In this document: positions 9,001-29,200 of the stretch, piece by piece
Layout of the letters: each line of letters opens with the position of its first letter
Numbering within the stretch: position 1 is the first letter of the stretch
NCBI GenBank assembly: GCA_003242895.1
Contig: QKMY01000058.1
Coordinates: forward strand, 12,739 to 76,738
Reading direction: 5' to 3'
DNA length: 64,000 bases
From: Candidatus Margulisiibacteriota bacterium
GTDB taxonomy: Bacteria > Margulisbacteria > Riflemargulisbacteria > GWF2-39-127
The notes under the pieces: generated by a model
What the model saw: only the letters and a program-made list of their open reading frames with translations
Databases searched by the model: none
What the model was told of the DNA's origin: nothing
Made by a program: the position numbers and the translations under genes

Positions 9001-12000
9001 CTTCATATCTATATACCATCTTTAATTCAGGTATAGACTGGAAATTGGGCAGTAACGAAATATCTTCTATCGACATATTTAAAGTAACATGTACCCAGGT
9101 CCCTCTGCTAATGATCTTCGGAGACAACTCAAGGGTACCATCCGGCGCACTCGCCATAATATATAGAGTTGTCGAACTTATGCTGACGTTACCTGCCCGA
9201 TCAGCTACTTCTAAATAAAGCGTCCGCATTCCTTCCGCTAATCCAGTAAACTGGAACTGCTGCCCGGTAAACCATTCAGACCAGGCGTTATTGTCAACCT
9301 TAGCCCGGAATGGACGATCTTTTAACTGACAATTATCTGCCGCCGGAGTCCAGCTTACAACAACATTATTCTTGTCATAGTAACCGGACTGCGGCCAATT
9401 AACGGCAAACCCGGTCGGACTGACAGTGTCCACATTTACTGTAACATCTTTTGTAGCCACATGGCCGGCAGCATCAGCCACTTTGATTTGGATAGATACG
9501 ATTCCCTGGACCGCCCCTACATTTATATCACCAATCGTATTCAGCGAAATACCCGATGACCAGGTTAGCCCATTATTCGTACTGAAAAAATAGGTTTTTG
9601 TATTAAGACTGACACTATCCCATGCCGGATCCCATTTTAAAGTAATCGAGCTATCATCATACCAGTTCGGTTCAGGATCAACTCCGTCTCCACCAGAATC
9701 AGAATCCTCACGAACTTCAACGAAATAAAAATTCGGAGTGGTAGTATCTACCCATTGCGAACCTACTGCTGAGGCTTTTATATTACCAGCCTTATCTGCT
9801 ACTGCCACATTAAAAGTAGCAGGTTTATAGATATTCGCCGAAGTATAGACATTCATCGTATTCGTATTATATGGAGTCCAGGATACTGTACCGATAGAAT
9901 TCTTTGCAAAATAAGGAGATGACGTGAACCCACCGACATCCTGCATTGCGGAAGTGGGAATTGTATATACGACAACAGTTTCTTTCCCATAATAGCCGAT
10001 GTCCGGCGTTACATCACCAATAAGGACCGGAGGACAAGGCAGAAAATTGACAGGAAGAAGCAGGTCCGGGCCTAGTATTACCGGGGCGACCATATCCACA
10101 TAAAACCCAGCCTGGGATTCAGTAACGTGTCCGGCCCTATCTCTTGCCTGAACATAGCCCAGGTTTTGATAACTGCCGTCATTGGAATAGGCGACAAAAT
10201 TAACGGCATTGCCATTATATGCAAATCCGCTCCAAGCATTCCATTCTGTATTAGCCGGAATATCGCTCGTTGCCACTCTGTAACGGTAAGCACCACCAGA
10301 TTGATATGGTCCGGAGGCATCTGACATTTCCCAGGAGAAATCTACAGTGTTGTCATCATAATAAGGAAATATGGGAGAGATTCCGTCACTATTGCTATCA
10401 CTATCAGGAGCAATCGCCATATTTAAGACAGGGGCCGTCAGATCGACAATTATGTTTTTTGAAAAAGTCGACGAATTGCCGACACTATCTCGAGCTATTA
10501 CGTATACGGTATGAACCCCTTCGCTTAAAGAACAGGTTAGACTTCCGTTCGCAGATTGTCCCCAAACAGGCGCAGCAGAATCAAGCTGATAAGCAACTGA
10601 GTTAATTCCTGAACCTGAATCACTAATACTCCAGCTAAAACCTACGGTTGTTTGATCAAAATACCCATTCTCCGGTTGATAAATGCTCGACCCGTCAGTA
10701 TCATCGGCAATAGTTATAGAACCGACAGGGCCAGTTGTGTCGATAAGGAATGGCCCTATATGGGTTGAATTTGTACTATAGTTAGCTACCTTGTCTTTTG
10801 ATCTGACATGAAACCATAGATTATTCCCATCAATCAATGAAGCCTGGTAATAAATATTAGCCGCAGCGACACCAGGCGCAGGCTCTGTATTGGAATTAGT
10901 ATCCCAAGAGTATACGTATCCATCTAATCCACTGTGTGCGTCACTTGCCTGGTTCCAATCGATTCTTACTACAGGGTTATTACTCCAGGTACCGGTAGTA
11001 TGTCCAGACGTACATCTAACGTTGGCTACATCAGTTGGGGGGGTTACATCCACCCAGAATGGACCACGATGAGCAGTAGAAGCAGAGATATTTATGGCTT
11101 GATCCTCCGGGCGAATATGCAGCCAATAATTCTGAGCAGATACTAGCGCAGAGGCAGGAAACGTATAATATGTCACGTTACCGAAACCATTATCGCTGCT
11201 CGTTACCAATGTACCGGAAACATTATCGAGCTTATATCTATAGGTATTAATGCCACTACCGCCTTGATCATACGATGTCGTCCAGTACGCACCGATATTT
11301 GGTAACCATGTACCAGTTGCAGGAGCGGTTATTGAAATGTCAGGAGGAATAGTCGTATCGATTTTTAGCAGAAAACTAGTAACATTCCCCCATGTTCCAG
11401 CATTGTTTTTTGCTCGTACATTGATTGAATAGGTACCTTCAGTTTTAGTTATTTGGAATGTTTGCAGAGGGTCACTGCCAGCAGGATCTACGATGATAAT
11501 CCCGTTTGTATCACCAGGGGTAGTGCCATCGGTTGTATAGCTATATCTATCAATTCCAGACACACTAAACGGGGCATTAATTGAAAAGGTAAAAACTCCG
11601 CTCTTATTCGTCCATCCGTTTACTCCATCCGGCATTGATGCGCCTCCGCTGTGGACACAGCTCAAAACCGGCCCTGCAGGAATAGCCGCATCAATCTTAA
11701 ATGGTCCTAAATTAGCTTCCACACCGACATTTCCGACATTATCCACAGCATGCACATGGAAATATGCGGTTGCTGAATTGGGCAGTACAATATTATTTAA
11801 TTGAGTTCCCACCGTATCATAGGTGCCATCAGCCAAAGTACCGGCAGATGCATTCGCGGCATACGAGTATCCGGCTACTCCTGATTGTGTGGCGTAGGTA
11901 ACATTATCATTTGAAGCATTCCACTGCATCGACAACATATTATTAGCTGTCCAGATCCCATTAGCCTGAACACCTGCTGTTCTTATTAATCCGGTAATAT

Positions 12001-13696
12001 TTGAAGGATTGGTCACATCTACCCAGAATGGCCCGCGATGAGCAGTATTGTAAGAAAGGTTGCTGGCGGAATCTTCAGGACGGATATGCAGGTAATAATC
12101 CTGTGCAGTAACGAGTGGAGAAGGAAGAAAAGTATAGCTAGTCACATTACCTACTCCGGAATCAGTGCTGTTTAACACTGTTGCTGAGGCCCTATCAAAT
12201 CTATATCGATAGGTGCTGATATTACTTCCGCCCATATCATTCGACATATTCCAGTATGCATTAACACTTTTCATCCAGGTGCTTGTATTCGGAGCTGTTA
12301 TCATGATATCCGGAGGGTTAGAAATATCTATATTTAATATAAAAGTCCTCGTTTGACTCCAGACGCCCGAAATACTTTTAACTTTTGCTTTAAAAGTATA
12401 AGTCCCTTGCGTTGAATAGGTACTTGGTAATGTGTATGAACTAGCAGCCTGGTCAATGATTGTGTCTGGTTCTGATCCATCCGTTGTATAGCTGATCCCT
12501 GCCATTCCGGAAATATTGCTCGGCGCTGTTATCGTAATCTGATGTCCAGTCAGGTTAGTCCAGACATTACTTACAGTACCCCTGCTGCTCACTATTGCCG
12601 GAGCGGCAGTGGAAGCATCTATCCAGACTTGGCTAAGGCTTGCCTCTGAACTCTCATTGCCTGCATTATCAACAGTCTTTACATATAACGTATATTTTCC
12701 ATCGATCGGACTGGCTTGAGAGGCACTTGTACCTGTAGTCGTACCTGAATAGGTCGTGTTAGTGCCAACCAACCTCCAACGATATTCTTTTAGTCCGCTC
12801 CCGCCAGAATCTGTAGCTGCAGTCCAGGAAAATGAAATCGGAGTTGCATTATTTGTATACCAGGTATTAAGTGTATGGGAAGTGCAGGAGAAACTTCCTG
12901 GTATCGAAGGGGCTATTGAGTCTATATAAAAAGGTCCCACATTAGTTGGAAGCGTTCCGGTATAGGTATGTCCCGCATCATCATTAACTACATTAAAATT
13001 AAGATATTGAGCGGTTGTGCTGGAAGTGTTGTAATCAAAAACATATGTTGGGCTATTTGAGGTATAATTTCCCCAATTCGTATATATATTTAATGGAGCG
13101 GCTCCACTGTCGTTTGTTTGCACTGTTACACGGACACTTTGATACCATGTTGGACCGCTGCCGGTTTTTACGGTTGATTGTGAAACAGAAGAAATAGGGT
13201 TCCAGTCAGCTTTGATTGTTATGGAATCAGAATATTGACTGCCATTAATGTAACAGGTTCCAGTATGAGTATTTGAACCCCCATTTGAGATTGCCCCATT
13301 CGGATTGTTAACATACAGAGAGTATGGGCTTGCATGACCACATCCTCCTGATGAGTAACTGATAGTGTAGCTTGAATATCCTGAGTTGGTAATATATCCG
13401 TTTGTCAAAGGAGCAGAACAGTAGAGACTGGCATAAGCTGAATAATAATCATGATAATCGTAATGTCCCGCAGAACAATATTGACAAGGATACGAGTAAT
13501 ATCCAGTACAATTCCCCATGCCGTCGTAGCCAGTGCAATAGCCGCAGGAGGTCCAAGCATACGAATCACACACCCACCAGTTATGGTATCCAGGCCAGGA
13601 AGCTGAAGATGCCCAGCTACCAGCGGCAGTGATTAGCAACATAATCACCCCGAAAAATAACGCATATAAAAATGTAATATTTTTAATCTTCCTCAA
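1..13696 (-). CDS. Giant secreted Ig-like repeat surface protein (partial, C-terminus lies beyond window start); >=4565 codons in window
   Basis: Manual minus-strand translation in the frame with codon first bases at coordinates = 1 mod 3 runs from TTG 13696 to position 2 without a stop. GAGGA 6 nt upstream; in-frame TGA at 13706-13708; alternative ATG at 13642. N-terminus MRKIKNITFLYALFFGVIMLLITAAGSWASSASW looks like a signal peptide. Recurrent motifs such as LYLWVKDRAGNIS and VTVTDNAGN. Not in the supplied ORF track, presumably because there is no stop inside the window. Confidence 0.85.
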   Translation of the reverse strand, partial: MRKIKNITFLYALFFGVIMLLITAAGSWASSASWPGYHNWWVCDSYAWTSCGYCTGYDGMGNCTGYYSYPCQYCSAGHYDYHDYYSAYASLYCSAPLTNGYITNSGYSSYTISYSSGGCGHASPYSLYVNNPNGAISNGGSNTHTGTCYINGSQYSDSITIKADWNPISSVSQSTVKTGSGPTWYQSVRVTVQTNDSGAAPLNIYTNWGNYTSNSPTYVFDYNTSSTTAQYLNFNVVNDDAGHTYTGTLPTNVGPFYIDSIAPSIPGSFSCTSHTLNTWYTNNATPISFSWTAATDSGGSGLKEYRWRLVGTNTTYSGTTTGTSASQASPIDGKYTLYVKTVDNAGNESSEASLSQVWIDASTAAPAIVSSRGTVSNVWTNLTGHQITITAPSNISGMAGISYTTDGSEPDTIIDQAASSYTLPSTYSTQGTYTFKAKVKSISGVWSQTRTFILNIDISNPPDIMITAPNTSTWMKSVNAYWNMSNDMGGSNISTYRYRFDRASATVLNSTDSGVGNVTSYTFLPSPLVTAQDYYLHIRPEDSASNLSYNTAHRGPFWVDVTNPSNITGLIRTAGVQANGIWTANNMLSMQWNASNDNVTYATQSGVAGYSYAANASAGTLADGTYDTVGTQLNNIVLPNSATAYFHVHAVDNVGNVGVEANLGPFKIDAAIPAGPVLSCVHSGGASMPDGVNGWTNKSGVFTFSINAPFSVSGIDRYSYTTDGTTPGDTNGIIIVDPAGSDPLQTFQITKTEGTYSINVRAKNNAGTWGNVTSFLLKIDTTIPPDISITAPATGTWLPNIGAYWTTSYDQGGSGINTYRYKLDNVSGTLVTSSDNGFGNVTYYTFPASALVSAQNYWLHIRPEDQAINISASTAHRGPFWVDVTPPTDVANVRCTSGHTTGTWSNNPVVRIDWNQASDAHSGLDGYVYSWDTNSNTEPAPGVAAANIYYQASLIDGNNLWFHVRSKDKVANYSTNSTHIGPFLIDTTGPVGSITIADDTDGSSIYQPENGYFDQTTVGFSWSISDSGSGINSVAYQLDSAAPVWGQSANGSLTCSLSEGVHTVYVIARDSVGNSSTFSKNIIVDLTAPVLNMAIAPDSDSNSDGISPIFPYYDDNTVDFSWEMSDASGPYQSGGAYRYRVATSDIPANTEWNAWSGFAYNGNAVNFVAYSNDGSYQNLGYVQARDRAGHVTESQAGFYVDMVAPVILGPDLLLPVNFLPCPPVLIGDVTPDIGYYGKETVVVYTIPTSAMQDVGGFTSSPYFAKNSIGTVSWTPYNTNTMNVYTSANIYKPATFNVAVADKAGNIKASAVGSQWVDTTTPNFYFVEVREDSDSGGDGVDPEPNWYDDSSITLKWDPAWDSVSLNTKTYFFSTNNGLTWSSGISLNTIGDINVGAVQGIVSIQIKVADAAGHVATKDVTVNVDTVSPTGFAVNWPQSGYYDKNNVVVSWTPAADNCQLKDRPFRAKVDNNAWSEWFTGQQFQFTGLAEGMRTLYLEVADRAGNVSISSTTLYIMASAPDGTLELSPKIISRGTWVHVTLNMSIEDISLLPNFQSIPELKMVYRYEDNSSSTPIVLSGSGLNYGLGNYTGEYIYKGDFLFNPGITPNSIEFYLSATNNAGTATKEKLIQSLIFSQGIIGTPTLILSDQDTYSTVWTNDLVVSVTLQGGGAASYWLLTEVNTPPVSPQDSRWSNSNQPLYTFKNNTNGLKTIYSWIMDAMGNISAGTSAAINYDATLPYVVSIDITNMPNISAGTKTVTINLSEELTYLPYAVIPEMWVTFNGGVKTNLNLTKVSPSLYTATLTIDGATPEGAAVFGVRIIDNANNVGSQILSGGSIVIDKSNPVVTSFKVMDRLTGSTLYTNSNRVDLEIKSSDSGSGIGWWLVTENNTFTPQANDSNWSGIVPEVYTLSGDQGAKKLYIWVKDLAQNISARATANNNLAGGPIDVATSIVYDSMYTPPTVDIQLLSIGDIHNVYSSTPVTVTLRMDNETQISTASLWIKLYGQDKVEVPLSSIINSGGNSYSCSGIVPFTVIGTANFEVSVTDVVGNATTRVNKIYYNTGISSINGGEIRINRNVAVPTVTMFDRGTSSSQYTNNQMIGVNIGNDPDAVRWLLSESSTGVAPEANDQNWRIDRPITYTFKNRVNELKSLFVWVKNRNEIISPVSTVATINYDDVIPFAVSVDIDNSPYVNGGVKTITVNLSEALQETPLLSLTVNGISVVLGPAAKVSGTKYTWVFNSSGMNGLGTFGIKITDNASNVGTGILAGGQISIDSTSPNISTFRLFDKLTGSELYTNARVVDLTLSGSSDINSWIITENSAFVPDTADSNWGAKPTSYQLTNVQGTHNVYIWGKDYALNINSNTTTIVYDNLIPEIGIDINHNPLNPITATKNLNVTINVLNIPSGISVTPNLYFNPYQKAAVPVTILGRTGTQFYGSITINSQTANGPAYFSAQVTDNARNYGTSVQWLKYSSIYFSNQLTVNIALITPTFILYDLDSKSSQFTNDFVVGVSYNYDQRSSAWLISETQSTNPSLTDPLWQSTPPVYFVLKNTNNGTRTSYLWTKDAAGNINTVPAIAIINYDNVFPQATSINFERGRYIKAGTSRVTVNISESVSATPDFYLTFMGSKRTITFDYFDGLTLAGFFTVDPNENGTAVINLTITDNALNITNVIPAGLISTINFDTVLPPDPTLGVNTSGLNRPDNSSGYTNTPTINVTISKDPDYFRYVIRELTAVPSENAEDWMPEPVQYRFVYETQGTRNLYLWVKDRAGNISNQYAFNSIVYDIDIPTGSLKLKCQANRSNQITNSLSNIVELAANDTDYYIITENAQFGKPDPLAAVWSAVKPANYDFDPDNIEEGPRYLYCWLMDKSGNINNVVVTTSIYYDPSVPNIGLLLTKSGWISTGDVSVTLDIGENIIVTPDLTYEVGGTTYSVELTPVDITRNAFIATLNVTEAFPNGFLTFHMTITDNAGTVTSDTFSYGTTTLNVDTVIPIIATAAIYDMDKPNSYNLTNDNPFNITMAITESTIKGYYISSNLIADPASIPPGTWLSERPQTYFHSESQGQYGYYIWVKDHAGNISLPRYVSTNFDAIAPTVSVEMARPPGVATFYGIGVVAVTINFNEPIASDSLSINIVCVADNRVNTLTYTVVNSQLVTGSFSVDGSFGDGRQFFRIIAEDLVGNRRVSDKPQGNYLENLDWPNTFVVATGIGFVSLKILDRDNLNNFSSSKYTNERYINMLFDQVALVTHYMITSNIGIKPVLVDITSPNNSESNEFSLNNYYISPSLAPDNQETVVTYNLWVKGASDIHNESTINASILVDLLTPEVTVSLNEGIKKIHAGEYILTVSVTEYIPSNNIKNSKFTYFNAATKILSFTPVGSPDSNNFYNTFRTTINIDSDTPSGQMTLSFNTYDKAGNRVDISTTYDISVVPNPSFNITDTNNGSPVFTNELTVSLNIISDDFADFYIITENATYYTRPERSFTAWRPKAEYTDSYTLSSGDGPKTLAFWVKDSSDPFEANINTKLITRTITLDTMEPTVNIRIGKTLGIGYSTVTFNYNEPILVAPSYFITMTPASGSPNALTRSIDILYSVSSNHTWIGQVEIRPFDVNDTATISGQTIDRAGNLSTSLFGTVTFSIDTLIPDPTFNIIDTDTDSNLYVNDLVVGLQIGNDKDAVKYMVSYTQSTQPTLNSPGWNADKPSNFTLKNVVNENKKLYLWVQDAYKNINKNVVSANIFYDDTPPQTEVKFGYRPYIKEGDYKITLNITQEILALNNTPDFKVQYAGQEALAIDIVPMDSSRYLWVGTINVNAEAPEGVATFSLSVTDNASNVQNKIISGMQTFVIDKTRPSAPGFTAYDPITLIQSYTNQRTIGVSVNIDSSVYMWYLSDQTNVTPDFDAVGWLTQQPTTFTFSDMVISTKNIKLWIQDRAGNISSTGSRSIYLDYDEPTATILISTYPNVKAGILNITLNVSEATLVGVSLNYTLYGYGEVARNVTLNQVSALTYTGTINVTEDFANGAALFNVQLVDYSGNRSNKLSGDIVFQVDTLLPEFSVHSIPDCYLNNTTLNITLNVSEAVSATPSVIFHSDIDAPVIMSCIGLNVWTGSLYISDSLGFDSSASLDVTVTDNAGNRSLAFVKPYTIDKIPADFTVESIKNSPNLAIGSYTLTLNVSEHTINPPQAYFSMSDSSTHSILMSRSINNYWAGDIIISDGYPEGICTINIRVTDYAGNVTSIFGGIVTFNVLITLADPTMNITDRTSGDKIYTNEYSIAVDVGNDNTAVKWMVNETQSVKPEWNAAGWQSSKPNLYTLNAGPEGHRKVYLWIQDSARNINKTIVSQNIILDTIKPVSQINMTKRDFVSIGAVSLTLSIQEDTPATPELKLVYADGSTLNFLLNGVSPNIYTATFNVFQNDPQGVASFYLCVTDNASNVQNTLVGDKQFVLDTVASTPSFVIFDYDTGDTNYTHDLLPRVIINSDADVVSWILSEVQPTRPSPTSNYWRNEKPYEYTFRNTDFGIKTVYLWVKDSAGNINDMAVTRSISYFRSTSVNIEVTAIKIFNQTGSTYSYIRP
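100..7960 (-). repeat. Tandem coding repeat array inside the giant gene: ~13 diverged copies of a ~200-220 aa two-domain module (period ~600-680 nt)
   Basis: Motif [LF]W[VI][KQ]D-x-AGNI recurs at approx. 135, 740, 1925, 2555, 3180, 3805, 4485, 5095, 5405, 6020, 6640, 7240, 7930, interleaved with a second motif (V-T/D-D-N-A-x-N). Copies are conserved at protein level but diverged at DNA level. Confidence 0.7.
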
Positions 13697-13727: not shown

Positions 13728-15068
13728 CTATTTTGCACATCTGAACCCTGTACAGCCACAAGGACTCGAAGGAGCTATTCCGGCCATAATGGAAAAAACC
13801 CCTGATTGTTCATTCATTTTGTGTTCTCCGCCTCTCAGCAAAGCGGCAGGGAAGCATTGTCCTTCCGCTTGATTAGAAGCTGATTTAACTTCACTAACAC
13901 TATCGTTACCATAGGAAACTCCCGTATTAGGAAAAAATCCGGGATCATACTGACCTTTACCGATTCTTATCATTTTCAGGGTTTCTACTATCAATTTCTC
14001 TATATCCTTAAATTTTGGATCAATTTCTAATGTAAATGCTTTCATATCAGGCTGAAATCTACTCGATATCTTTCTGTTTTCATCGAGGTAATAATTCTTC
14101 TTTAATTCTTCCCAGATTTCTTCAGATTTAAACGAGGTTTTTTTTTCAATCTCATCAAAGGCATTTTTTTGTACTGGCCCCTGATAAAACATGCCATTAC
14201 CCTGCATCCAGTCGCTTACCCATTCATTTACATTCCCCGCCATGCCAACACAGCCAAAGGTAGAAATTTCCTGAGCGGCTATAGTGTCCCAGGAGGCCGG
14301 AAGTTCCCCTCCCCGCCCTTTGCTTAACGCCGTGCCTGCTGCGCCGTCCTGCCATTCGCCGTTTGTCACCAGCCGCTTCCCTGCGTTAACTGCTGCCCTG
14401 CGAGCGACAAACCAGGTCATTCCGGTCGAACACTCAGCCCTTTGAGAAAAAGCCATCCAATATGGTGGCACATTCTGGCCATTACCCGCCAAAATCCCAA
14501 AATCATTATGATTATGATCATGTTGGCTGTCTTTTTTATTTTCGTTCCGCTGAATAAAATATGTCCCTTTTACGTCAGCACCTTTATAATCTGCACCCAC
14601 ATCAATTATCCGGCAGGAATACTTATCTATCCAAACGGTACCTACCTTCACCTGTATATCATCTTGCCCGCATCGGTATGCCGGCATATCCGGATTGTAT
14701 TTGTTATTAATATGAGTTCCTGGCGGCAACTGATCCAGTTTGCCATGAAAAAAACCGACATTATTTCCTGTTACTATCCAGGAAACAGGATCTCCAGGAT
14801 CAATTGTGCCCCGGCTGGCATCTATGACTTTATTATATTTCCAGGCCCTTTCTTCATCATCCCACCCTACCCATAGAGCATTAAACATTAGATAACTCTG
14901 TCCATTATTGCTAAAATCCGGCCATTGATATACCGGAACAGAGTTAGCATAATAGTTGGGTAACCGGTTATCAACCTGCTGAACCGCGGCTTCGCCGACA
15001 ACTGAAAATACCATTAAAAAAAAGCATAGTGAAAGTATAATTCTGATCTTGTGATAAAATTGCATCAT
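13728..15068 (-). CDS. FGE-sulfatase/SUMF1-family domain protein (formylglycine-generating-enzyme-like; GldK/GldJ-like possibility), secreted
   Basis: 446 aa with N-terminal signal peptide. Motifs AGKRLVTNGEWQDGAAGT and MAGNVNEWVSDW resemble the FGE signatures RLPTEAEW..ARGG and GNVWEW. ~140-aa C-terminal extension ending PCGCTGFRCAK. 31 bp upstream of the giant gene, same strand. Confidence 0.65.
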   Translation of the reverse strand: MMQFYHKIRIILSLCFFLMVFSVVGEAAVQQVDNRLPNYYANSVPVYQWPDFSNNGQSYLMFNALWVGWDDEERAWKYNKVIDASRGTIDPGDPVSWIVTGNNVGFFHGKLDQLPPGTHINNKYNPDMPAYRCGQDDIQVKVGTVWIDKYSCRIIDVGADYKGADVKGTYFIQRNENKKDSQHDHNHNDFGILAGNGQNVPPYWMAFSQRAECSTGMTWFVARRAAVNAGKRLVTNGEWQDGAAGTALSKGRGGELPASWDTIAAQEISTFGCVGMAGNVNEWVSDWMQGNGMFYQGPVQKNAFDEIEKKTSFKSEEIWEELKKNYYLDENRKISSRFQPDMKAFTLEIDPKFKDIEKLIVETLKMIRIGKGQYDPGFFPNTGVSYGNDSVSEVKSASNQAEGQCFPAALLRGGEHKMNEQSGVFSIMAGIAPSSPCGCTGFRCAK

Positions 15069-15076
15069 CGTCTCCC

Positions 15077-15790
15077 TTATAATAAAAATAAAATACCTAG
15101 CGCTAAAAACGTAAAAGCCATAACCAACTTAAACCAACCTATTTTTTCTGTCAAAAATCCGGAAAGCTTCCGGGAAGAAAGCCCGCTGTAAGTTAATAAT
15201 CCGATTATGATTAAAGGAAAAACAAAAAATACGTTATAAACGAACAATAGCAATGTGCCCTTTATCGCAGAACCGGTTTTTATCATATACAGAATCGAAG
15301 GGAAATATATCTGTCCGGTACAGTTCAGCTCAAATATAGATACCAGGAAACCTAATACCAGTGAGGCAATCACGATATTTCCTGTCATGGTTTTCTCTCT
15401 GATTGCGTTTTTAATTCTTTTTTGTAAAAAGTCCGGTAACCGTAAGATGAACTTATTTTTTTTTGTAAATGCCAGATAAGCATCATAAAAAGAAAGGGCC
15501 GAACCAATGAATGCAAGACCTGCTATAACGCATTGAAAAAGCCTGGCAACAATAAAGTATGAACCGGTTTTATAAAGAAATTGAAATAAGCCAAACCCTA
15601 TCAAAAAATAGGTAACAAACACTGCTATCGTAAATAATGCAAAAGAAAGCATCATTTCCTGTTTTCTCTGTCGTACTGACAGGTACGAGAGCAAAAAAAT
15701 TACCGTACCAAATGCACACGGATTTATTCCGTCGATTAAACCTGCCATGCATATAGTAATAAAACTGAGATTAACCAAACTATTTAGCAT
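15077..15790 (-). CDS. CcdA/DsbD_2-family thiol:disulfide transmembrane electron-transfer protein
   Basis: 237 aa, polytopic and hydrophobic. N-terminal motif GLIDGINPCAF and a second membrane-embedded Cys (FELNCTGQIY), as in the cytochrome c biogenesis transmembrane (DsbD_2) family. Confidence 0.55.
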   Translation of the reverse strand: MLNSLVNLSFITICMAGLIDGINPCAFGTVIFLLSYLSVRQRKQEMMLSFALFTIAVFVTYFLIGFGLFQFLYKTGSYFIVARLFQCVIAGLAFIGSALSFYDAYLAFTKKNKFILRLPDFLQKRIKNAIREKTMTGNIVIASLVLGFLVSIFELNCTGQIYFPSILYMIKTGSAIKGTLLLFVYNVFFVFPLIIIGLLTYSGLSSRKLSGFLTEKIGWFKLVMAFTFLALGILFLL

Positions 15791-16880
15791 CCTCTCTCAT
15801 AATATGATCAAGCTGTCTCTCTATCTCAGTTTTACCTGCCAGTAACAGTCCATTAAAATATAGTGCCGGCAGATCAAGTTTATTTCCCATTATCTTCATA
15901 TAAGTCTTATAATTATCAGGCTCTTCCAGAGGATAAAAAACAACCTCATAATGTTTATTATGAGCAGCTAATACCTGCGGGATCTTCTTTGTTCTTAGTT
16001 TGTGACAATAGGCACAATTACTGTTAGAAAATACATAAATAATATCCCTGGATAACCTTGTATCTTTTTGCTTTTCCTGACCTCTTAACTCTTTATAATA
16101 TTCGAGCATCAGACCCTTAAGCTTTTTTGAGGCCATAAAACTGTCGGCAGGTATCATTTTCTGGGAGATGAGATTAACGGTCCCCTTCTCTATGCTAAAA
16201 ACCATCTTTCCAAGGAATTGAGCATCTTTTCCTGCTGATACAAAATGTGTCTGCCCTACTGTAAAAGAATTCTGATACTCACTTTCACTGGAGACAATAA
16301 TATCAATCCAAGGGAATTTCTTCGCGATTTCAATATTCTCTTTTTTAGAAAGCTGGGATAATAAAACTGTCAGGTCAGCTGATTTTTTTTGTACACTAAA
16401 GTGCCCTGACAAATACGTCTCGAATGCAGATTGCTTATCAGCAGCAACCCCGAGAATGATTATAGTGACTCCGGATTTCTTAACCGAAATGTATTTCTGG
16501 GTTTGTGCACCTGATTGAACAGAGGATACAAGAGGAAGTTCACGTACCTGGTTATCTGCCGGCACATCCAGGTTAATTGCATCATATTTAAATAAGTTCA
16601 TAGCGGCTGCAACATACTTGTTTTTTGCACTATTATCAGGTAAAAAAGTTCCTCCGTTATCAACTATTACTAAATTAGGATTGCGTTCCCTTTCTTTTTC
16701 AACAAGAGGCAATAGCAACTCTAGTCCGCCATTCGCTTCTGTTGAACAATTACACGATTCTAATTTCCCGTTGATATTAGAGGTAAACAGCAGGGTAATA
16801 GTTTCTGCATTCAAAAAATTACAACTGCACATCGATAATACAGTAATAAGAAAAAAATAATTAATAATAATTCTACCCAT
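15780..16880 (-). CDS. Exported thioredoxin/glutaredoxin-like CxxC protein with N-terminal degenerate metallophosphoesterase-like domain
   Basis: 366 aa with signal peptide. C-terminal thioredoxin-fold-like segment with CAYC (YVFSNSNCAYCHKLRTKKIP...). N-terminal part weakly resembles a calcineurin-like phosphoesterase (ITLLFTSNINGKL, LVIVDNGGTF) but lacks the usual His/Asp ligands. Overlaps the CcdA-like gene by 11 bp. Confidence 0.5.
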   Translation of the reverse strand: MGRIIINYFFLITVLSMCSCNFLNAETITLLFTSNINGKLESCNCSTEANGGLELLLPLVEKERERNPNLVIVDNGGTFLPDNSAKNKYVAAAMNLFKYDAINLDVPADNQVRELPLVSSVQSGAQTQKYISVKKSGVTIIILGVAADKQSAFETYLSGHFSVQKKSADLTVLLSQLSKKENIEIAKKFPWIDIIVSSESEYQNSFTVGQTHFVSAGKDAQFLGKMVFSIEKGTVNLISQKMIPADSFMASKKLKGLMLEYYKELRGQEKQKDTRLSRDIIYVFSNSNCAYCHKLRTKKIPQVLAAHNKHYEVVFYPLEEPDNYKTYMKIMGNKLDLPALYFNGLLLAGKTEIERQLDHIMREDAK

Positions 16881-19585: not shown

Positions 19586-20827
19586 CTAATACTGATTTTC
19601 CAAAGAATTCTCTATAAATTTAAGCAATTCCATTATCGAGCGGTTTGCCGGCATATACTTTTCTGCATTTTTCGCTTCATTATAAGCATCCATGACCCTG
19701 TCAGCCTTCAACAATTCCCTGGCTTTCTGAATGTGCTCCCACGCTTGCTTTTCATCCGCCAGCGAATATGTTTTCAGTTTTAAAATATTATCCAATTTCT
19801 CTATTTGCTCTTTAATCTCGGCAGTAAGCTCTGCAATAGTTCCCGCGGAGCTATAAGATTGCCTGGATAAATTGTAAAAACCTCTTTCCTGGTACATAGA
19901 ACCCTCAAGAATAAGTTTATCACACTCTTTCTTAATAACCTCTTTTTTATCGTCACCAAAGTTTAAAACCATAGAAAATTTCATCGTATCGCCTATGGTC
20001 TCTTGTTTACCTAACGCTAAATCGAACTTAAACATCAGATATTCTATACCTATGCCAAAAGTGAGTTCGTTATAATTAATCCCACTTCGAAGATAAAGCA
20101 TATCCAACAGCTTGTATTCCGCCCCTAAATACCACTGATCAAAGGAATCTGTGATATCATAGGCAATTATCCAGTCATTATCAGCGTAACTAATGCCACC
20201 ACGCCATACCATAGGGATAGTATCTGCAGTCATCGAAGGAGCATTATTCATCACATAAATATTATTAAGTACTGCGCCTATAGTCATTTTATCTAAAATC
20301 TTATAATTTAAGCCTAGATCAAAAACAAAAAAAGAATCAGAGCTAACATCCAACTCTCGATTAAACATTTTGAATCCAATACCGTAAGACAATTTATGAT
20401 CAAATTGTTTGGCATAGCCAAGGCACAATGCACTACTCTTATCATTAAATGAACCTATATTATTGTTGTCTTTATCTGTTTTTATAAATCCGACTGAATC
20501 AGATAAATTGATTAGCCCTCCTCCATACGTTTCGTATAACCCGGGATAAACAAATGAGAGAACAGAATAAGAGTAAGCTTGGAACATTGAGGCTGACATA
20601 AAAAGGAAAGACATTTTTGGTACATCTACTAAACAAGCAGGATTGCGATAAACAGATGAAGCATCCTTACTATTTGTTACATACGTTCTCCCCATTGCAA
20701 AAGACCTTGCATCTGCTCCGTATGAGAATAAAGCTCCAGGCTGACCCGCATCAAGCGCTTGAGAACCGCCGACGAAAAAGATCAGGTTTAAAACAAAAAA
20801 AATAATTAGAAAGACACTTTTTAACAT
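19586..20827 (-). CDS. Outer-membrane beta-barrel protein, PorV/PorQ-like N-terminal signature, plus C-terminal alpha-helical domain
   Basis: 413 aa with signal peptide. N-terminal motif GADARSFAMGRTYVTNSKDASSVYRNPACL matches the PorV/UPF0164-type signature. Alternating amphipathic beta pattern for ~290 aa, then a ~120-aa charged helical tail. First gene of the operon. Confidence 0.45.
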   Translation of the reverse strand: MLKSVFLIIFFVLNLIFFVGGSQALDAGQPGALFSYGADARSFAMGRTYVTNSKDASSVYRNPACLVDVPKMSFLFMSASMFQAYSYSVLSFVYPGLYETYGGGLINLSDSVGFIKTDKDNNNIGSFNDKSSALCLGYAKQFDHKLSYGIGFKMFNRELDVSSDSFFVFDLGLNYKILDKMTIGAVLNNIYVMNNAPSMTADTIPMVWRGGISYADNDWIIAYDITDSFDQWYLGAEYKLLDMLYLRSGINYNELTFGIGIEYLMFKFDLALGKQETIGDTMKFSMVLNFGDDKKEVIKKECDKLILEGSMYQERGFYNLSRQSYSSAGTIAELTAEIKEQIEKLDNILKLKTYSLADEKQAWEHIQKARELLKADRVMDAYNEAKNAEKYMPANRSIMELLKFIENSLENQY

Positions 20828-21430
20828 ATATGTCCACTATCAGCTGCTTATCTACTTAAACCAATATGAAATTGATAATAAAATTATCGTTAAACTCATC
20901 ACCTATCTTAATTTTATCAAAGATTTAACCAATCACACAAAAAAAGGCTTTATTATAACCCTTATTCTCGCCCCCAAATGAATCGATTTTTTCAAAATCC
21001 AGGGGTAAAGGCTTACATAAGCAGCTAATTATAACTGCTGTAAAAATCTATCGGGGAAATATGCCCAACGACTTGTATCGACTGATTATGGTTTATTGAG
21101 GACGGCACCTAGGAGATGTCTTTTTAAGTTTTAAGTGAGAATTAGTTTTATTGAATGTTAAAATTTTTAAAGCTAATAATTAGAAGAATAATTGAACTAT
21201 TCTATAAGCTTTTGCCGAAGTAAAAATATAGTAATCATCGTCAAAACATTTTAATTTGAAAAGAATTATGTGGATTTAAGAAATAGATAATTATCGTTTT
21301 GATCTATCGAGAATCAAATGGATTTGGAGATATTCCCTACAAGCTGCCAATCATATTATATGGAAATAATAGAATTATTAAAATCTAAAGAAATAAATTT
21401 TAAGGATTAAACTTGCTTATACATTTAAAA

Positions 21431-21507
21431 TGGTCGGGGCGACTGGATTTGAACCAGCGGCCCCCTGTTCCCAAAACAGGTGCGCTACCGAGCTGCGCCA
21501 CGCCCCG
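21431..21507 (-). tRNA. tRNA-Pro (anticodon UGG)
   Basis: Minus-strand sequence CGGGGCGTGGCGCAGCTCGGTAGCGCACCTGTTTTGGGAACAGGGGGCCGCTGGTTCAAATCCAGTCGCCCCGACCA folds as a cloverleaf: 7-bp acceptor stem, anticodon loop TTTGGGA, T-loop TTCAAAT, encoded CCA. Confidence 0.9.
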
Positions 21508-23579: not shown

Positions 23580-25910
23580 TTATAATCCGGCAAGTGAAGA
23601 GTTTTTTGAGCTATCTTTAACTATCACTTTAAGTATCGTATTCGGATTCCCACTATTCTTAACTTTAGAGAAAAACTGCCCGGTTGGCTTTATATATAGA
23701 GACTTATTATTTACTGCCACTACAAGACCCTTATTTGCCATTCCTTGAACAATTATGTTCCCTTGAGAAAAGCTGACTATAATTTCTACTTCTTTATCAT
23801 TGTTATCAATTGCAGTTATAACTATTTCTTTATCTTTTGCGTAATCTACTTTTGCAAATAACTTATAGCGTAAAGAATTTATACTGGTCTTTTTCCCATC
23901 AATAATAAGTCCCTTAATACCCTGGGCACTACCTTTAATTATTACTTTATTAGCTTTTGTCTTATATACTTCCAAAGAGATATTCTGAGTAATTATTGAG
24001 CTCTCAATGTTGACGACTTCCCTATTATTTAAATCAGCATTTGCCTCAGTATCGAATACCTTGTTTGTGCTAAGATACCTCGCCAATATAGTCGCAGCCT
24101 CTACTCTGTTAATCCTCTTATTCGGATTTAATGCGCCTTTTTCATCTCCACCAGCACCTAATGCTGAAATATATATTTTTATAAATTCATCATATTTATG
24201 AGGGATCAATACAGCATCTTTATAGGATATCTCAACATTTTCTTCGGCTTGGTAACCCTCTTTTTTCAACGCTTTCGCTATCGCAACTACCAACTCTAAT
24301 TTTGTGAATGGTTTAGTCGGTTTAAATAACATAGCAGATTCACCATTAACTACACCTAAAGTTACAGCTTCCTGAATTATACCTGATGCCCAGTGACTAG
24401 AGCTTACATCGTTAAACCGGGTATTCGTCTTGTCGTTTGCTTTAATATTGATGTATTCAGTTGTTACATGAAGCTCTTTTGCTGTATTCATCTCTTCATA
24501 CGGATTCTCTACCACAACTTTAACTTTATAAACTCCATCTTCTACAACTTTGTTTGATTTATCAGTGCCATCCCAAACTAATTTTTTTTCTGAAGTATTT
24601 ACATCAAGTATAGTATTAATATTCTTTACTAAAACTCCATCTTTATTATAGATATCCACTCTTATTGGTATATGATTATTTTTTTCATCTTTATTCAATT
24701 TTATTGAGAACTCTGCATTTCCGGCTTTTTGTTTCAATTTTAGTGCTAGTAAAACTATTTTTGTAGCTTCAGATTTTTTAATGATTCCATTCGGATCATA
24801 GTTTCCATCAGGCCTGCCATTTACTACTCCTAAGCTAGCCATATCTTCTACAGCCTTCTTGCCCCAGTGATCTTCCATATCGGAAAACTTAACATCCAGC
24901 CCGGCAGGCTTAATTACTGTTGATGAGACGACATCCAATTTTACCATCTCGTCTTTTTGTGGAAGAGTTGCTCCAAGCCCAGTTGATTTATCAATGGATA
25001 CGCTATCAAAGCTTAATCCGAAAGAGAAAGAATTATTATTCTCAAGCACTCCATCAGGAGATCCCATATATGCGTAATTAAAATTAAACACGTCATATTT
25101 GATTCCAGCTCCAAATGTTAACGCAGAATTGTTTAAGCCCCCACGAAATGACAATAAATTCTGATAATTGTATTCGACACCTAGTCCATACCCCATTTTA
25201 CGATTATTGCGAAGCGTCGCATCATAAAGCAATGTAAAATCATTTATTTTCTGGGAAACTCCAATGGTAGCTTTAAAAGGGATAGTGTCAGTATTATTAC
25301 TTTCGGTATCCCATCTCAGAGCCGGCTTTACTACATTTTGAAGATTAACGCCAACTTTCAGATCTTCAAACGGATTGTAAAGGAAGCCTATATCCATGCC
25401 AAAACCGGTTGCCTGTTTATTGTACATACTTTCATTGATATATTTGGTTGTTACTCCTAAGGCTAATGAAGGAAGAACGTTAACTCCATATCCGATCATA
25501 ATCGCCTTAGCCCCATAATCAAAATTCTTGCCAGTTTCCGTAGCTCTAAACTGGCTGCCAATCTGGTCTAACGTTGTTTCTTTTATTCCTGCAACTCCAG
25601 CAGAAAAATACGTAATACCTAAACCTGCATTATCTCCAATTGGAATTACTCCGCCGAAATAAGTCTGGTCGACATCTCCATATAGTTTTGTGTACATTGA
25701 ATCAAATTGGATGTTTTTTATTTGGGCAAGCCCTGCACTATTGTACATTGTTGCATGGGCGTCATTGCTGAGGGCTGTAAAGGCTCCTCCTAATGACTGA
25801 GGCCTTGCACCGGCACCCTTTTCGAGAAATGCGCCGGCATTTGAATAATCCTTCGCATAACCTACGTTTGCAAATGTGAGTAGTGTTAATATTAAAAGTA
25901 GCTTTTTCAT
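23580..25910 (-). CDS. Mosaic outer-membrane protein: PorV-like beta-barrel N-domain + SLH domains + FlgD-Ig-like domain + C-terminal beta-rich domain
   Basis: 776 aa with signal peptide. N-terminal GAGARPQSLGGAFTALSNDAHATMYNSAGLA (PorV/UPF0164-like). SLH-like segments FSDMEDHWGKKAVEDMASLGVVNGRPDGNYDP and FNDVSSSHWASGIIQEAVTLGVVNG. FlgD-Ig-like KKLVWDGTDKSNKVVEDGVYKVKVV. Confidence 0.55.
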   Translation of the reverse strand: MKKLLLILTLLTFANVGYAKDYSNAGAFLEKGAGARPQSLGGAFTALSNDAHATMYNSAGLAQIKNIQFDSMYTKLYGDVDQTYFGGVIPIGDNAGLGITYFSAGVAGIKETTLDQIGSQFRATETGKNFDYGAKAIMIGYGVNVLPSLALGVTTKYINESMYNKQATGFGMDIGFLYNPFEDLKVGVNLQNVVKPALRWDTESNNTDTIPFKATIGVSQKINDFTLLYDATLRNNRKMGYGLGVEYNYQNLLSFRGGLNNSALTFGAGIKYDVFNFNYAYMGSPDGVLENNNSFSFGLSFDSVSIDKSTGLGATLPQKDEMVKLDVVSSTVIKPAGLDVKFSDMEDHWGKKAVEDMASLGVVNGRPDGNYDPNGIIKKSEATKIVLLALKLKQKAGNAEFSIKLNKDEKNNHIPIRVDIYNKDGVLVKNINTILDVNTSEKKLVWDGTDKSNKVVEDGVYKVKVVVENPYEEMNTAKELHVTTEYINIKANDKTNTRFNDVSSSHWASGIIQEAVTLGVVNGESAMLFKPTKPFTKLELVVAIAKALKKEGYQAEENVEISYKDAVLIPHKYDEFIKIYISALGAGGDEKGALNPNKRINRVEAATILARYLSTNKVFDTEANADLNNREVVNIESSIITQNISLEVYKTKANKVIIKGSAQGIKGLIIDGKKTSINSLRYKLFAKVDYAKDKEIVITAIDNNDKEVEIIVSFSQGNIIVQGMANKGLVVAVNNKSLYIKPTGQFFSKVKNSGNPNTILKVIVKDSSKNSSLAGL

Positions 25911-26205: not shown

Positions 26206-29200
26206 TTATTTCAAAACTGCTATCTTAACTTTTTCTTTTGTTTTATGCTTGCCGTCATCTATTATGAGATATCCGAGATAGACACCATTCGAAACAACTT
26301 CACCGAATTTATTTCTACCATTCCAAATTATCTCATTATATCCAGCTTGAGCTCCCGGTTCGTCTTTCGATGCTTCCATATTAAATAATAACTCACCACT
26401 AATTGAGTAAACCCTTAGTTCCGTATCCGCCGGCTGACTTAGGTAATAACTAATATAAGCACTTCCCTTGTTAGGATTAAAAGGATTCGGCGCAGATAAA
26501 AGTTTAGTTACCGTTTCCCCTGACACCAGGAAACTAACCTGAACTACTATGCTCGACGTCGATAAATCATTCGCCTGGACAAGAATAGAATATCTTCCCG
26601 GAGCAAGAGTTATAGCAGGATTGAAGACATATGATGCAGTAGCCACAATTGATGCTGTTGGGAATGCTACTATTCCTGATACAGTTACAATATCGTTCTT
26701 CCAATCTTGGATTAGCACATTGTAAGTTGTCAGGAAAACATCATCAACAAAACCAACCTTCACTTCTCGAACTTCATTCGAGATATAATCCCCAGTAACT
26801 ACCACTTTATCGTTGACATAAAGATCTGAAGCTGATCGAGGACTGTCTACTATTGAGGTTATTACAAATGCCTGCGAATTATTAACAAGTTCATTACCGA
26901 AAATGTCTTTGATATTACGAATCTCTATCTTTGCAATACCAGTATTCATTAAATTGCCTATTTCTGTTTCTGCCACCCATACGGCATTCTTAACTCCGGA
27001 GGATTCCAATCTAACAGCAAACTGCTCGGTTACTCCTAAGATATCAACACACGTTATAATTGGAAGTGAAGTACTATCCACTCCTGTATCGTCAGAAACA
27101 TTTATAGTTAGAGTCATAGTATTGCCGAAGGGGACCCTTCGATCCAATTTATCAAAACTCGTAGCAAATGCATTAATAGTCGGGGCCCTTAGCTCCGCTG
27201 CATATACTATAGATGCGAAGCTAATTACCGTCCCATTGTCACTACTAACGTACTGAGCAGTATGCCCAGCTAAATCAACTATACACGAAGTATCAAAATA
27301 AAGGTTTCCTGTACCAACTGCTAAGCTATAATCAATCGGAATAACTCCTCTTATTATATTATTAACAATATTCACGCTAGCAGCGTTAGCATATATCTTC
27401 TGATGGTCTTTTGACATCTCTAGCCAAATCTTAGGTTCAGAGTCCGCAGATATCACAACTATGCCTTTTTCGATAATAGGGATTACAAAGTGAATGCCGT
27501 TAGGACCAAGCTTCACAATGGAACCCGTTACGATTTCTTCCTCGAAAGCAGTCTTGGAAATAGATACCTTTTCTTTAGTAGATTTTGCTTTCGCAACTTT
27601 ACTAAAGATGCTCCTAAATGTATCCTTCTTCGTAGCTACTGATAAGGCACTAATACCTGTGTTACTTGCAGCAATATCATCTGATGTGAAAATCAGGGTA
27701 TCGGCACTGAATTGAGGTAACATCGGCGAAGTTTGATCTGTTTCAAAAGAGATATTATCAACAGTAAACCTATCTTTGCCCGCATTATAAACTTTAAATT
27801 GAAAAGCAAGTATATTTTTAATTAAATCTTCAATCGGAACTATATTTCCAAAATCCCCATTCAATCTAAAATCACTATAGGAAAGAACAACTCGATTAAA
27901 CTGACCATTAATCCAAGTATCCGGGTCCATATGTTCTACAAAGAATGCTTCATAGTTGTTACCGAGCGTTAAATCATCATTTGCAAGAGCTACCGATACC
28001 TGACACATACTATCGTAATTTCCACTAACATATAAAGTTACAGTATCGTATTGGCTAAGATCAACTGCAACATTGCTGTTAGCAAATGGCCTGCTTACCA
28101 TCATCCAATTCGCGTCATCAGTACTATTGTATGCGATATTTAGCCCTTTCGACCCATCAACACCATTATTGGATATCCAAGCATTTATTGTAGCTTCAGA
28201 AGAAGGAGAATCCGCTCCGGACCACCAGTATTCACCGTAAGATTCCATGTCAAATGATTGCATAAAGTTAAAGGTTGTTGGGATCGGCGGAGTGTTAGCA
28301 TCATAATCAAATGACAGCTCATCGAAATATATGTTTCCAGCCCCACTACCATTAACTCGGAACTGAATTGTTTTTGCTTGAGCTAAGAGGTCTTTAACTG
28401 AAACAAGATTACCAAACAGCCCTTGAGGCATGAAGCTGCTTAGCGGGATCGATATTCTAGTAAAAGTAGAATTATTAACAGAATCCGTCACTACTTGACT
28501 TAAATCAACGAAATAGTTGTTATAACTAGTAACATCATCATTAGCGATGATCAATTTCAACCGACCGACTTCTTCTTTGTTGCCCTTTACATAGAGGTGC
28601 ATCACATTATACATCGAAAGGTCGACGGTTGGAGTTACCGCAGTTCCTAGAGCTCGACCAATAATTGACCATGAACTGTCAGACGTATTGGAATAATTAA
28701 TCTGGAATGACTTCATTGTCCCGTCGGCACCTTCATAGACAATATTATGATTGATAGTCGCGCCATAGGCTGCTGTATCCCACCACCAGTTGCTTCTGTC
28801 TTTCTCAAAATCGTATTTGCCAGCAAAATTCAAGTTCAGGGTCGGCACATACGGTGGATTCTGCGCAACATCGAACCCTAAGTTATCGACGATAAAGGAG
28901 CCTGAAACTTGCCCTTCTATCCTGAACTGTATTGCTTTTATATTACTTAATATTGTTCCAAAATCTATGGCGGTTTCCATACTATTCATCGGCCTAAAGT
29001 CACTGAACGGGATCACGACTTGATTATAACCATTGGCATTATAGCTGTCTTTATCGATACAATCATAAATATTTGCTCCATAGTTGTTGTATGAGGTAAT
29101 CGTATCGTTCGCCAGTACCATCAAGATATTCTTGAACTGCTCGACGTCACCCTTTAGCGACACCGTTATTGATTTGTAATTATTCATTGCGACAATGTCG

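Follow-up and report, generated by a model that had tools for sequence, protein, structure and literature searches.

A PorV-like barrel with a TPR tail beside a FliF-FliG fusion in Margulisiibacteriota: a candidate outer-membrane part of a proton-driven module for giant adhesins

We analyzed a stretch of 64,000 nucleotides, called the window below, from a Candidatus Margulisiibacteriota bacterium (assembly GCA_003242895.1, contig QKMY01000058.1, positions 12,739 to 76,738 of the forward strand). The gene under study lies on the minus strand at 19586..20827, starts with ATG, and encodes an outer-membrane barrel protein of 413 amino acids (aa). An original prediction, made from the DNA letters, had described the product as a PorV-like barrel with a helical C-terminal extension that leads an operon and, speculatively, takes part in an export logic resembling a type IX secretion system (T9SS). 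An identical protein had already been recorded, as hypothetical protein DKM50_10460, in a metagenome-assembled genome (MAG) of Candidatus Margulisiibacteriota, and the contig of the window is present in several assemblies. The parts of the barrel gene and the gene next to it are the following (positions in the window).

20756..20827, minus strand: signal peptide of the barrel protein, aa 1-24, with predicted cleavage between ...GGSQA and LD; placed from the sequence, this N-terminal helix being of low confidence in the structural model
19952..20755, minus strand: N-terminal hatch with the conserved motif GADARSFAMGRTYV...DASSVYRNPA and FadL/PorV-type barrel of about 14 strands, aa 25-292, with a beta-signal-like KFSMVLNF at its end
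19586..19951, minus strand: C-terminal, presumably periplasmic domain of three TPR-like repeats in six helices, aa 293-413, and the stop codon
16901..19561, minus strand: 886-aa bitopic inner-membrane FliF-FliG-like fusion, assigned from Pfam, NCBIfam, hydropathy, and profile comparisons with PDB structures

The barrel protein and its family

The AlphaFold2 model of the barrel protein, computed with 48 relatives as input, had a mean predicted local distance difference test (pLDDT) score of 93 and a predicted template modeling (pTM) score of 0.85. From the N-terminus, it consisted of the signal peptide, the hatch, a barrel of about 14 strands (aa 72-290), and six helices (aa 294-412), so that the beta-barrel prediction suggested as a check gave a confident barrel. 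The hatch lies in the lumen of the barrel, as in the PorV/PorQ-FadL structural superfamily, and the tail is made of helix-turn-helix repeats with the tetratricopeptide repeat (TPR) fold. The protein shares the fold of FadL, PorV ranked above FadL in both structure searches, and PorV was the nearest solved structure. The product of the gene is a plugged outer-membrane protein of the PorV/PorQ-FadL superfamily that continues into a three-repeat TPR domain; its site in the outer membrane and the periplasmic side of the tail are predicted features.

The profile search that had been proposed, against PorV/PorQ, FadL, and UPF0164, was led by the PorV/PorQ family, while the more specific models stayed under their cutoffs or did not match. 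The NCBIfam model of the PorV/PorQ family (NF033709) matched with E 1.4e-22 and 80.7 bits, aligning aa 36-290 with positions 9-326 of its 326, and the N-terminal motif on which the original prediction was built (aa 37-66) is part of this full-length match. Such a match is far beyond chance. The curated cutoff of the model is 90 bits, slightly above this score, and the protein is by homology a divergent member of the PorV/PorQ family that formally falls just short of the line. None of the T9SS equivalog models was reached: PorV (NF033710) scored 24.1 bits in the N-terminal third only (E 1.8e-5, cutoff 250), PorQ (NF033711) 57.2 bits (cutoff 220), and PorV2 (NF052325) 41.5 bits (cutoff 325). On these equivalog scores, membership of the barrel in a canonical T9SS was rejected. 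The FadL/TodX family (Pfam PF03349 Toluene_X) gave 16.9 bits over aa 24-75 only (E 0.0024, cutoff 29.7), and UPF0164 (Pfam PF03687, cutoff 21.4 bits) gave no match at E<=0.1; a paralogue of the barrel at 23580-25910 obtained 17 bits with the latter model, and more distant relatives, for example P0012, do match it.

A profile search among 1.84 billion representatives found 8962 relatives of the barrel with E<=1e-3, of which 2892 reached E<=1e-10 and 82 reached E<=1e-30. All of the 48 closest representatives matched PorV_fam (best E 4e-56), 16 to 31 of them, depending on the model, also matched TPR-containing models, and only one matched TIGR03519, weakly. The named relatives belong to Riflemargulisbacteria, Saganbacteria, Elusimicrobia, and unclassified "bacterium" MAGs, and some of them already carry the NCBI name "PorV/PorQ family protein." The helical TPR tail is the rule among them, often longer than in the protein of the window. 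The original prediction had correctly set this tail apart from canonical PorV, yet it is not unique. TP0548, TP0859, and TP0865 of Treponema pallidum combine a 14-stranded FadL-like barrel with a presumptively periplasmic, alpha-helical C-terminal extension with TPR motifs (PMC8407342), and therefore the architecture of a barrel plus a TPR tail is not new as such.

The FliF-FliG fusion and the conserved neighborhood

The neighboring 886-aa protein begins with a signal peptide, an S-layer homology (SLH) domain (aa 100-141), and TPR (250-320), which are followed by a FliF-like ring-building domain (about 335-535) and a membrane helix (536-554). According to hydropathy, this one membrane helix separates the two halves of the protein. 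Behind it lie a Gly/Ala/Ser linker, FliG_M (647-704), and FliG_C (729-835), both above their Pfam cutoffs (FliG_M 25.3 bits, cutoff 25; FliG_C 48.2 bits, cutoff 23.3). A profile of the protein and three homologues matched Thermotoga maritima FliG (PDB 1lkv) with E 3.7e-37. FliG_N is absent and TIGR00207 gave 48.9 bits (cutoff 226.7); judged by these matches, the protein is a homologue of the M and C domains of FliG and not an orthologous FliG. Ahead of the membrane helix, the periplasmic part of the sequence follows the pattern "E..LE.RLQ..I...L......V.V.L...LPGVP...". The profile built from 16 domains of this kind matched residues 240-471 of Salmonella FliF (6scn) with E 1.8e-7, other FliF at about 1e-6, and the ring-forming SpoIIIAG with E 3.6e-6, and YscJ_FliF_C matched weakly (E 1e-3) on a distant fusion homologue from a related locus (L005 below). 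This is a region of the ring-building motif type (RBM3) with a membrane helix behind it, and FliF is represented without its N-terminal half. Considering the FliG_M and FliG_C matches, the FliF and SpoIIIAG profile matches, and the single membrane helix, the neighbor is a natural fusion that joins a FliF-like ring-building region to the stator-facing part of FliG, and it may form a ring. In the wider fusion family, the torque helix reads "NMSxGxAxLLKEEMEFG," with the acidic pair (Escherichia coli D288/D289) kept as Glu-Glu and Arg281 replaced by Gly.

To place this pair of genes, 97 related loci were compared, of which 92 were scored and fell into 31 barrel clusters at 60% identity; L093-L097 were fetched later and stand outside the statistics. 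Metagenome loci with barrel relatives (80) were fetched using a 15-sequence alignment, and a scan of a genome collection with a FliG-like alignment and narrow peptide patterns gave 3 loci. Scoring relied on home-made hidden Markov models for barrel, fusion, MotA, MotB, and cargo tail. The fusion followed the barrel immediately in 13 of 25 informative clusters and was found anywhere in the locus in 15 of 31. A protein with the cargo tail, a C-terminal domain (CTD) described below, and often of giant size, lay immediately upstream of the barrel in 19 of 30 clusters, and 16 of 25 had a MotA/ExbB-type gene. Across at least Margulisiibacteriota/Saganbacteria and Elusimicrobiota, gene order ties the barrels of this clade to the fusions, to a motor (MotAB or ExbBD-TonB), and to large proteins that carry T9SS-type CTDs.

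The pair of barrel and fusion recurs in L001, L002/L003, L004/L005/L010, L012 (a "bacterium" MAG), L096, and L097. L001 (57% identity) and L096 (46%) hold the two closest nonparalogous relatives of the barrel, and there MotA and a MotB with plug and OmpA domains are divergently adjacent to the barrel gene. L002/L003 represent a paralogous module of the same MAG as the window, and in these loci and in L097 a giant gene follows (>3500-4100 aa); the MAG of the window contains two or more paralogous modules, every one of which has a giant gene of its own. The 2.9-Mb chromosome of an uncultured bacterium (L004/L005/L010) encodes, in this order within one locus, a 16,931-aa protein, the barrel with its TPR tail, the fusion, MotA, MotB, and an 824-aa coiled-coil protein, with another PorV-like barrel and CTD protein on the opposite side. 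MAGs of Endomicrobiales and Elusimicrobiota have barrel, fusion, MotA, and one or two MotB genes together in a stretch of no more than 10 kb. The MotA proteins of these sister loci had their best NCBIfam matches to MotP, PomA, and MotA (160-250 bits, under the equivalog cutoffs), and the MotB proteins have MotB_plug and OmpA domains and keep the Asp of "YADLMT," as expected of a stator of the flagellar type.

Two gene orders were distinguished. In variant A, the typical order is a giant CTD protein, the barrel with its TPR tail, the fusion, a Pro-rich coiled-coil protein of 770-1150 aa, MotA, and MotB. The coiled-coil protein between fusion and MotA (L036 13575-16613; L016 5119-8589; L038 3951-7085; L005 14953-17427) begins with poly-proline, contains a very long coiled coil rich in Glu and Lys, and matched no Pfam family. 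Variant B (L078-L087, for example, L085 4423-16842) consists of a CTD protein of about 1800 aa, a PorV-like barrel of about 417 aa, a YbgF/BamD-like TPR protein of about 1030 aa that weakly matches PorW/SprE, TolQ/ExbB, two ExbD, and a TonB_C protein. In the loci inspected, no further flagellar gene was recognized, in particular none for export apparatus, rod, hook, FliM/N, or flagellin, and the idea of a flagellar gene cluster was rejected on this ground.

Several other genes stand beside the modules. A gene for a methyl-accepting chemotaxis protein (L001 6530-8086, minus strand) adjoins MotAB, a PilZ-domain protein is encoded at L005 20349-21146, and a Cache-HAMP-SpoIIE phosphatase (L009 10278-12083) lies between fusion and MotA; these signaling genes hint at regulated, possibly tactic, behavior. 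The paralogous module of the same MAG (L002/L003 2619-6428; L097 1305-5114) adjoins a divergent set of OEP (TolC-like), periplasmic adaptor, and MacB-type ATP-binding cassette pump, which is an alternative candidate for the export route of the giant protein.

The giant proteins encoded upstream of the barrels, the one of 16,931 aa included, end in a common domain of about 95 aa with the pattern "NYPNPF...I.Y.L...V.I.IYDL.G.LV...WDG.N..G..VA.GGYI.RI...RKIGV". Three isolated tails of giant proteins scored 29.4, 28.1, and 26.9 bits against TIGR04183, the "T9SS type A sorting domain" (cutoff 23). The tails also matched the C-terminal sorting domains of the PorU, PorZ, and M6i models (E 1e-8 to 1e-12) and Pfam FlgD_ig, and the protein upstream of an Endomicrobiales barrel matched CHU_C (type B) with 34.8 bits (cutoff 27). 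SprA/Sov, PorU, PorZ, GldK, and GldLMN as such had no match among the open reading frames (ORFs) scanned in the window or the related loci, the rest of the genome lying outside this search. The only T9SS-model matches in these ORFs fell in the C-terminal sorting-domain or TPR segments of the PorU, PorZ, M6i, and PorW/SprE models.

The operon and other features of the window

The remaining features, in the operon and beyond it, are the following.

20828..21430, minus strand: noncoding leader between tRNA-Pro (21431-21507) and the barrel gene, the presumed promoter region of the operon
15780..16880, minus strand: secreted protein of 366 aa that combines a UshA-like (seleno)protein region with a thioredoxin/DsbG-like C-terminus containing CxxC, from profile matches
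15077..15790, minus strand: 237-aa DsbD/CcdA-type membrane thiol-disulfide electron transporter (PF02683, E 7.6e-7, 29.1 bits, cutoff 27.1)
13728..15068, minus strand: secreted protein of 446 aa in which aa 260-302 partially match FGE-sulfatase (PF03781, E 2.6e-6, 43 residues)
1..13696, minus strand: giant secreted repeat protein rich in Thr/Ser/Asn, of whose 5692 aa in the full contig the window holds the N-terminal 4565, with a signal peptide followed by a Cys/Tyr-rich module
23580..25910, minus strand: second, paralogous PorV-family barrel, in a fusion of 776 aa with two SLH domains and one FlgD-Ig-like domain (NF033709 121 bits, cutoff 90; SLH E 2.9e-23; FlgD_ig)
26206..30012, minus strand: 1268-aa secreted protein with CIA30/CBM-like repeats and a T9SS-type-A-like/FlgD-Ig-like CTD (TIGR04183, PorU C-terminus, FlgD_ig)

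The view that the barrel gene leads the operon is consistent with about 600 bp of noncoding DNA and tRNA-Pro upstream of it and with five tightly spaced, codirectional ORFs downstream (gaps of 24, 20, -11, 8, and 31 nt). The promoter itself was not located: a scan of the leader gave only weak sigma-70-like matches that were not above chance, and a terminator scan was no better than chance. The giant surface protein that had been noticed near the barrel is indeed encoded in the same operon, with more than 4565 aa in the window. In contrast, its supposed GldK-like neighbor did not hold. The ORF at 13728-15068 matched only 43 residues of the FGE-sulfatase profile, had no NCBIfam match at E<=0.1 with the GldK models included, and lacks a canonical lipobox; such a gene was not annotated in any related locus whose gene table was read. 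Since no GldK model matches, GldK identity was rejected.

Near the N-terminus of the giant protein (about 13400-13640) lies a Cys/Tyr/Gly-rich module, "WWVCDSYAWTSCGYCTGYDGMGNCTGYYSYPCQYCSAGHY", and the genes for the thioredoxin/DsbG-like CxxC protein and the DsbD/CcdA transporter (15077-16880) may provide dedicated disulfide chemistry for this Cys-rich adhesin. In one assembly, the giant gene is split into products of 650 aa and 5005 aa (L093 vs. L094, 15866-22661), and in another it is a single product of 5692 aa; the split is either a frameshift or an assembly difference within a repeat gene.

The second barrel (23580-25910) lies directly downstream of the CTD-bearing 1268-aa ORF (26206-30012). 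The tail of the latter matched TIGR04183 with E 3.7e-4 and 20.4 bits (cutoff 23), the C-terminus of PorU with E 6.4e-8, and FlgD_ig with E 3.8e-5. The 1268-aa protein and a 224-aa protein encoded two genes upstream (30960-31634, also minus strand, with a gene for a 272-aa secreted protein in between) have a common mature N-terminus after the signal peptide, "AANYGLIAIQASIV" and "AANYGLIGIQATVA", respectively, possibly a motif for sorting, lipidation, or strand exchange. Right behind the dcw/ftsZ cluster (37472-49361), the plus strand encodes a 448-aa protein with an N-terminal SLH domain (49452-50798). It may be an OmpM-like tether between outer membrane and wall, which fits a diderm envelope with SLH-binding wall polymers.

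A candidate envelope-spanning module and its alternatives

Based on these data, we hypothesized that the barrel is the outer-membrane, cargo-holding subunit of a conserved, undescribed, proton-driven and envelope-spanning module for giant adhesins, a reading that we hold to be probable, with modest confidence. The module would consist of the barrel with its TPR tail, the FliF-FliG fusion (which in Margulisiibacteriota has SLH and TPR modules too), a proton stator of the MotA/MotB type, and a giant secreted repeat protein. It would resemble T9SS and gliding in its logic, built around the flagellar rotor-stator core. Proton flow through MotAB would set the FliF-FliG protein in motion, probably in the form of a ring, and on its periplasmic side the fusion would contact the TPR tail of the barrel. 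The barrel would bind the giant adhesin and hold it at the cell surface, as PorV or SprF does in type IX secretion and gliding, and the handle in relatives would be the C-terminal Ig-like sorting domain of the adhesin. In this way, the proton-motive force would be spent on export, anchoring, or movement of the adhesin. From the observed fold and family of each part and the conserved order of their genes, we infer the topology, all protein contacts, the formation of a ring, the coupling of energy, and the binding of cargo in this scheme. The T9SS-like logic of the original prediction is kept in part. The CTD proteins upstream of related barrels and the second barrel-cargo pair in the window support it, whereas a canonical T9SS is contradicted by the equivalog scores and by the lack of core components in the scanned ORFs.

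Several observations weigh against this proposal. The barrel itself scores below the curated line of its family model. Neither MotA nor MotB is encoded in the 64-kb window or, around the paralogous module of this MAG, at a distance of up to 10 kb, and 12 of the 25 informative clusters have no adjacent fusion gene. In some closer relatives, with loci of the Riflemargulisbacteria type, only a 190-aa TPR protein follows the barrel (L006, 11251-11823; L007, 2453-3025; L011, 9282-9857); this protein corresponds by homology to the periplasmic TPR segment of the 886-aa fusion, the FliF-FliG part is missing there, and in L011 a giant gene comes after it. The Margulisiibacteriota clade of the fusion, including the protein of the window, has Gly, Gln, and Val at the torque-helix positions R281, D288, and D289, and an SLH domain that fixes the fusion to the cell wall would be hard to square with free rotation. 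The giant gene here lies downstream of the barrel, unlike that of most relatives, which is upstream. A CTD on its product is unproven, because the C-terminus (about 1127 aa) lies beyond the start of the window and the precomputed Pfam record of the 5692-aa product (contig MFRF01000005.1) holds only a faint Y_Y_Y match, although this record passes over the tail of the 1268-aa protein as well. A translocon with enough width for a giant protein was not found, and the sample of loci is biased because most of them came from metagenomes via one peptide pattern.

Four other explanations were considered, and given the scores and synteny all of them seem less likely. In the most probable of these, which is still unlikely, the barrel is a general envelope protein, either a tether between outer membrane and wall or an assembly accessory like BamG of Bacteroidota, without energetic coupling to FliG and MotAB; it would stand beside giant adhesin genes only through helping to build the surrounding envelope. 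The adjacency of the fusion (13/25) and the presence of MotAB or ExbBD nearby (16/25) are not expected of a housekeeping assembly factor, and the paralogous modules of the MAG, at least two and each with its own giant gene, suggest a dedicated rather than a general use. A good deal less probable is a FadL/TodX-type channel for the uptake of hydrophobic nutrients, in which the TPR tail would pass the substrate to a periplasmic or inner-membrane acceptor, as proposed for TP0548, TP0859, and TP0865. The Pfam FadL score lies under its cutoff, PorV outranks FadL in both structure searches, the conserved neighbors are the FliF-FliG fusion, MotAB, and CTD-bearing giants, and no genes for lipid or aromatic catabolism or for transporters were annotated in the loci whose gene tables were read.

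Nearly the same low probability, or slightly lower, is given to the module being a remnant or atypical accessory of a true flagellum, with the barrel as a collar-like or ring-like outer-membrane part of the motor. The FliF-, FliG-, MotA-, and MotB-like parts are all flagellar by homology, and the chemoreceptor gene beside MotAB in L001 and the PilZ gene in L005 would fit. Against it stand the missing genes for export apparatus, rod, hook, FliM/N, and flagellin in the inspected loci, the lack of FliG_N and of the N-terminal half of FliF in the fusion, the multiple copies of the modules and their link to CTD cargo, and the fliG and motAB genes reported to be kept in nonflagellated Elusimicrobiota. 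The least probable, and very improbable in our judgment, is that the barrel is a bona fide PorV/PorQ of a canonical T9SS in Margulisiibacteriota, with SprA/Sov, PorU/Z, and GldKLMN encoded elsewhere in the genome. It would agree with PorV/PorQ as the best family and structure matches of the barrel and with the T9SS-type CTDs on neighboring cargo-like proteins. It is opposed by equivalog scores far under the cutoffs, by the lack of any match of a T9SS core model to an ORF scanned in the window or related loci, and by a conserved motor partner that is MotAB with FliF-FliG, or ExbBD-TonB, and not GldLM. Moreover, to our knowledge, T9SS has been described only in the Fibrobacteres-Chlorobi-Bacteroidetes (FCB) group.

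The proposed module, a barrel coupled to a FliF-FliG protein and a proton stator, shares single features with several known systems. PorV (LptO) of the Bacteroidota T9SS (PDB 6H3I, 8GL6 chain F) has 16-19% identity to the barrel of the window and no C-terminal TPR domain. Its partners SprA, PorU, and PorZ were not found for the barrel of the window within the scanned ORFs, the motor linked to the latter is MotAB with FliF-FliG rather than PorLM/GldLM, and the phylum is outside the FCB group. The genes for PorP/SprF-type barrels and their cargo lie side by side. A cargo-dedicated outer-membrane barrel of this type anchors a giant CTD adhesin, as for sprB-sprF of Flavobacterium (PMC9143113), and the gene logic is that of giant CTD protein and barrel in 19 of our 30 clusters; these barrels belong to a different subfamily, given the single weak TIGR03519 match among the 48 relatives, and in the window the giant gene is downstream, with its CTD unproven. 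The treponemal TP0548, TP0859, and TP0865 are proposed importers of nutrients that pass the substrate to a tripartite ATP-independent periplasmic (TRAP) transporter, and were not reported beside FliG-like, MotAB, or CTD-cargo genes; the barrel of the window fails to reach their UPF0164 family.

The likeness to the flagellar rotor-stator core lies in the order of FliF-like region, membrane helix, FliG_M, and FliG_C in the fusion, and in MotA and MotB proteins, the latter with plug, that are nearest to flagellar stator models. On the other hand, the module has FliF and FliG in one chain, lacks FliG_N and the N-terminal FliF half, has a torque helix without Arg281 (and, in the Margulisiibacteriota clade, without the acidic pair too), and is linked to an outer-membrane barrel and giant adhesins, with no export gate, rod, hook, FliM/N, or flagellin genes alongside. 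In the other proton-driven 5:2 motor systems with an action on the outer membrane (GldLM/PorLM in T9SS and gliding, ExbBD-TonB, TolQRA, and AglRQS-Glt), an inner-membrane ion motor is similarly encoded with a periplasm-spanning protein and an outer-membrane barrel, and variant B actually uses TolQ/ExbB, two ExbD, and a TonB_C protein. None of these systems has FliG as motor partner, and none pairs a TPR-tailed PorV-like barrel with its motor.

According to a preprint (10.1101/2022.07.08.499144), homologues of motAB and fliG, with a role called "unclear," persist in free-living Elusimicrobiota that have no flagellar structural genes. These orphan genes are possibly the same as those of the module; the FliF-FliG fusion, the adjacent PorV-like barrel, and the CTD giants were not reported in that study of magnetotactic Elusimicrobiota. 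Two studies found Margulisbacteria, Elusimicrobiota, and Omnitrophota to be enriched in giant proteins and left barrel, FliG, and MotAB partners unmentioned, and a survey of MotAB evolution listed no FliG-linked nonflagellar clade. Apart from the note on orphan fliG and motAB, the literature searched on PorV, FliG, MotAB, T9SS, giant proteins, and gliding in Margulisbacteria, Elusimicrobia, and Omnitrophota yielded no description of the module. The interest lies in the module around the barrel, which, if it works as proposed, would be a new kind of proton-driven envelope machine.

FliG and MotAB are regarded as hallmarks of flagella, and PorV-type barrels with CTD cargo as hallmarks of type IX secretion in Bacteroidota. 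If both sets are wired together in one module, this would be a second, nonflagellar use of the flagellar rotor-stator core, and the association repeats in dozens of loci from phyla not known to glide or to have T9SS. For annotation, neither T9SS nor flagella should be read into the labels "PorV/PorQ family protein" and "FliG" when they occur in these phyla. The module, if true, would be a concrete, testable hypothesis for the handling of the giant surface proteins that are abundant in these lineages, an explanation of the orphan fliG and motAB genes in nonflagellated Elusimicrobiota, and a new data point on the origin of the flagellar motor and of T9SS-like sorting. As a more tentative extension, rather doubtful at present, Margulisiibacteriota, Saganbacteria, Elusimicrobiota, and related uncultured bacteria might own a flagellum-independent rotary machine, in which a FliF(RBM3)-FliG ring turned by MotAB is coupled through TPR domains to PorV-like barrels that hold giant adhesins by their T9SS-type CTDs. 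Such a machine would be a new class of proton-driven apparatus for adhesin secretion or gliding that either branched off from the flagellar motor or is related to that motor's ancestor, and it would explain the orphan fliG and motAB genes of nonflagellated lineages.

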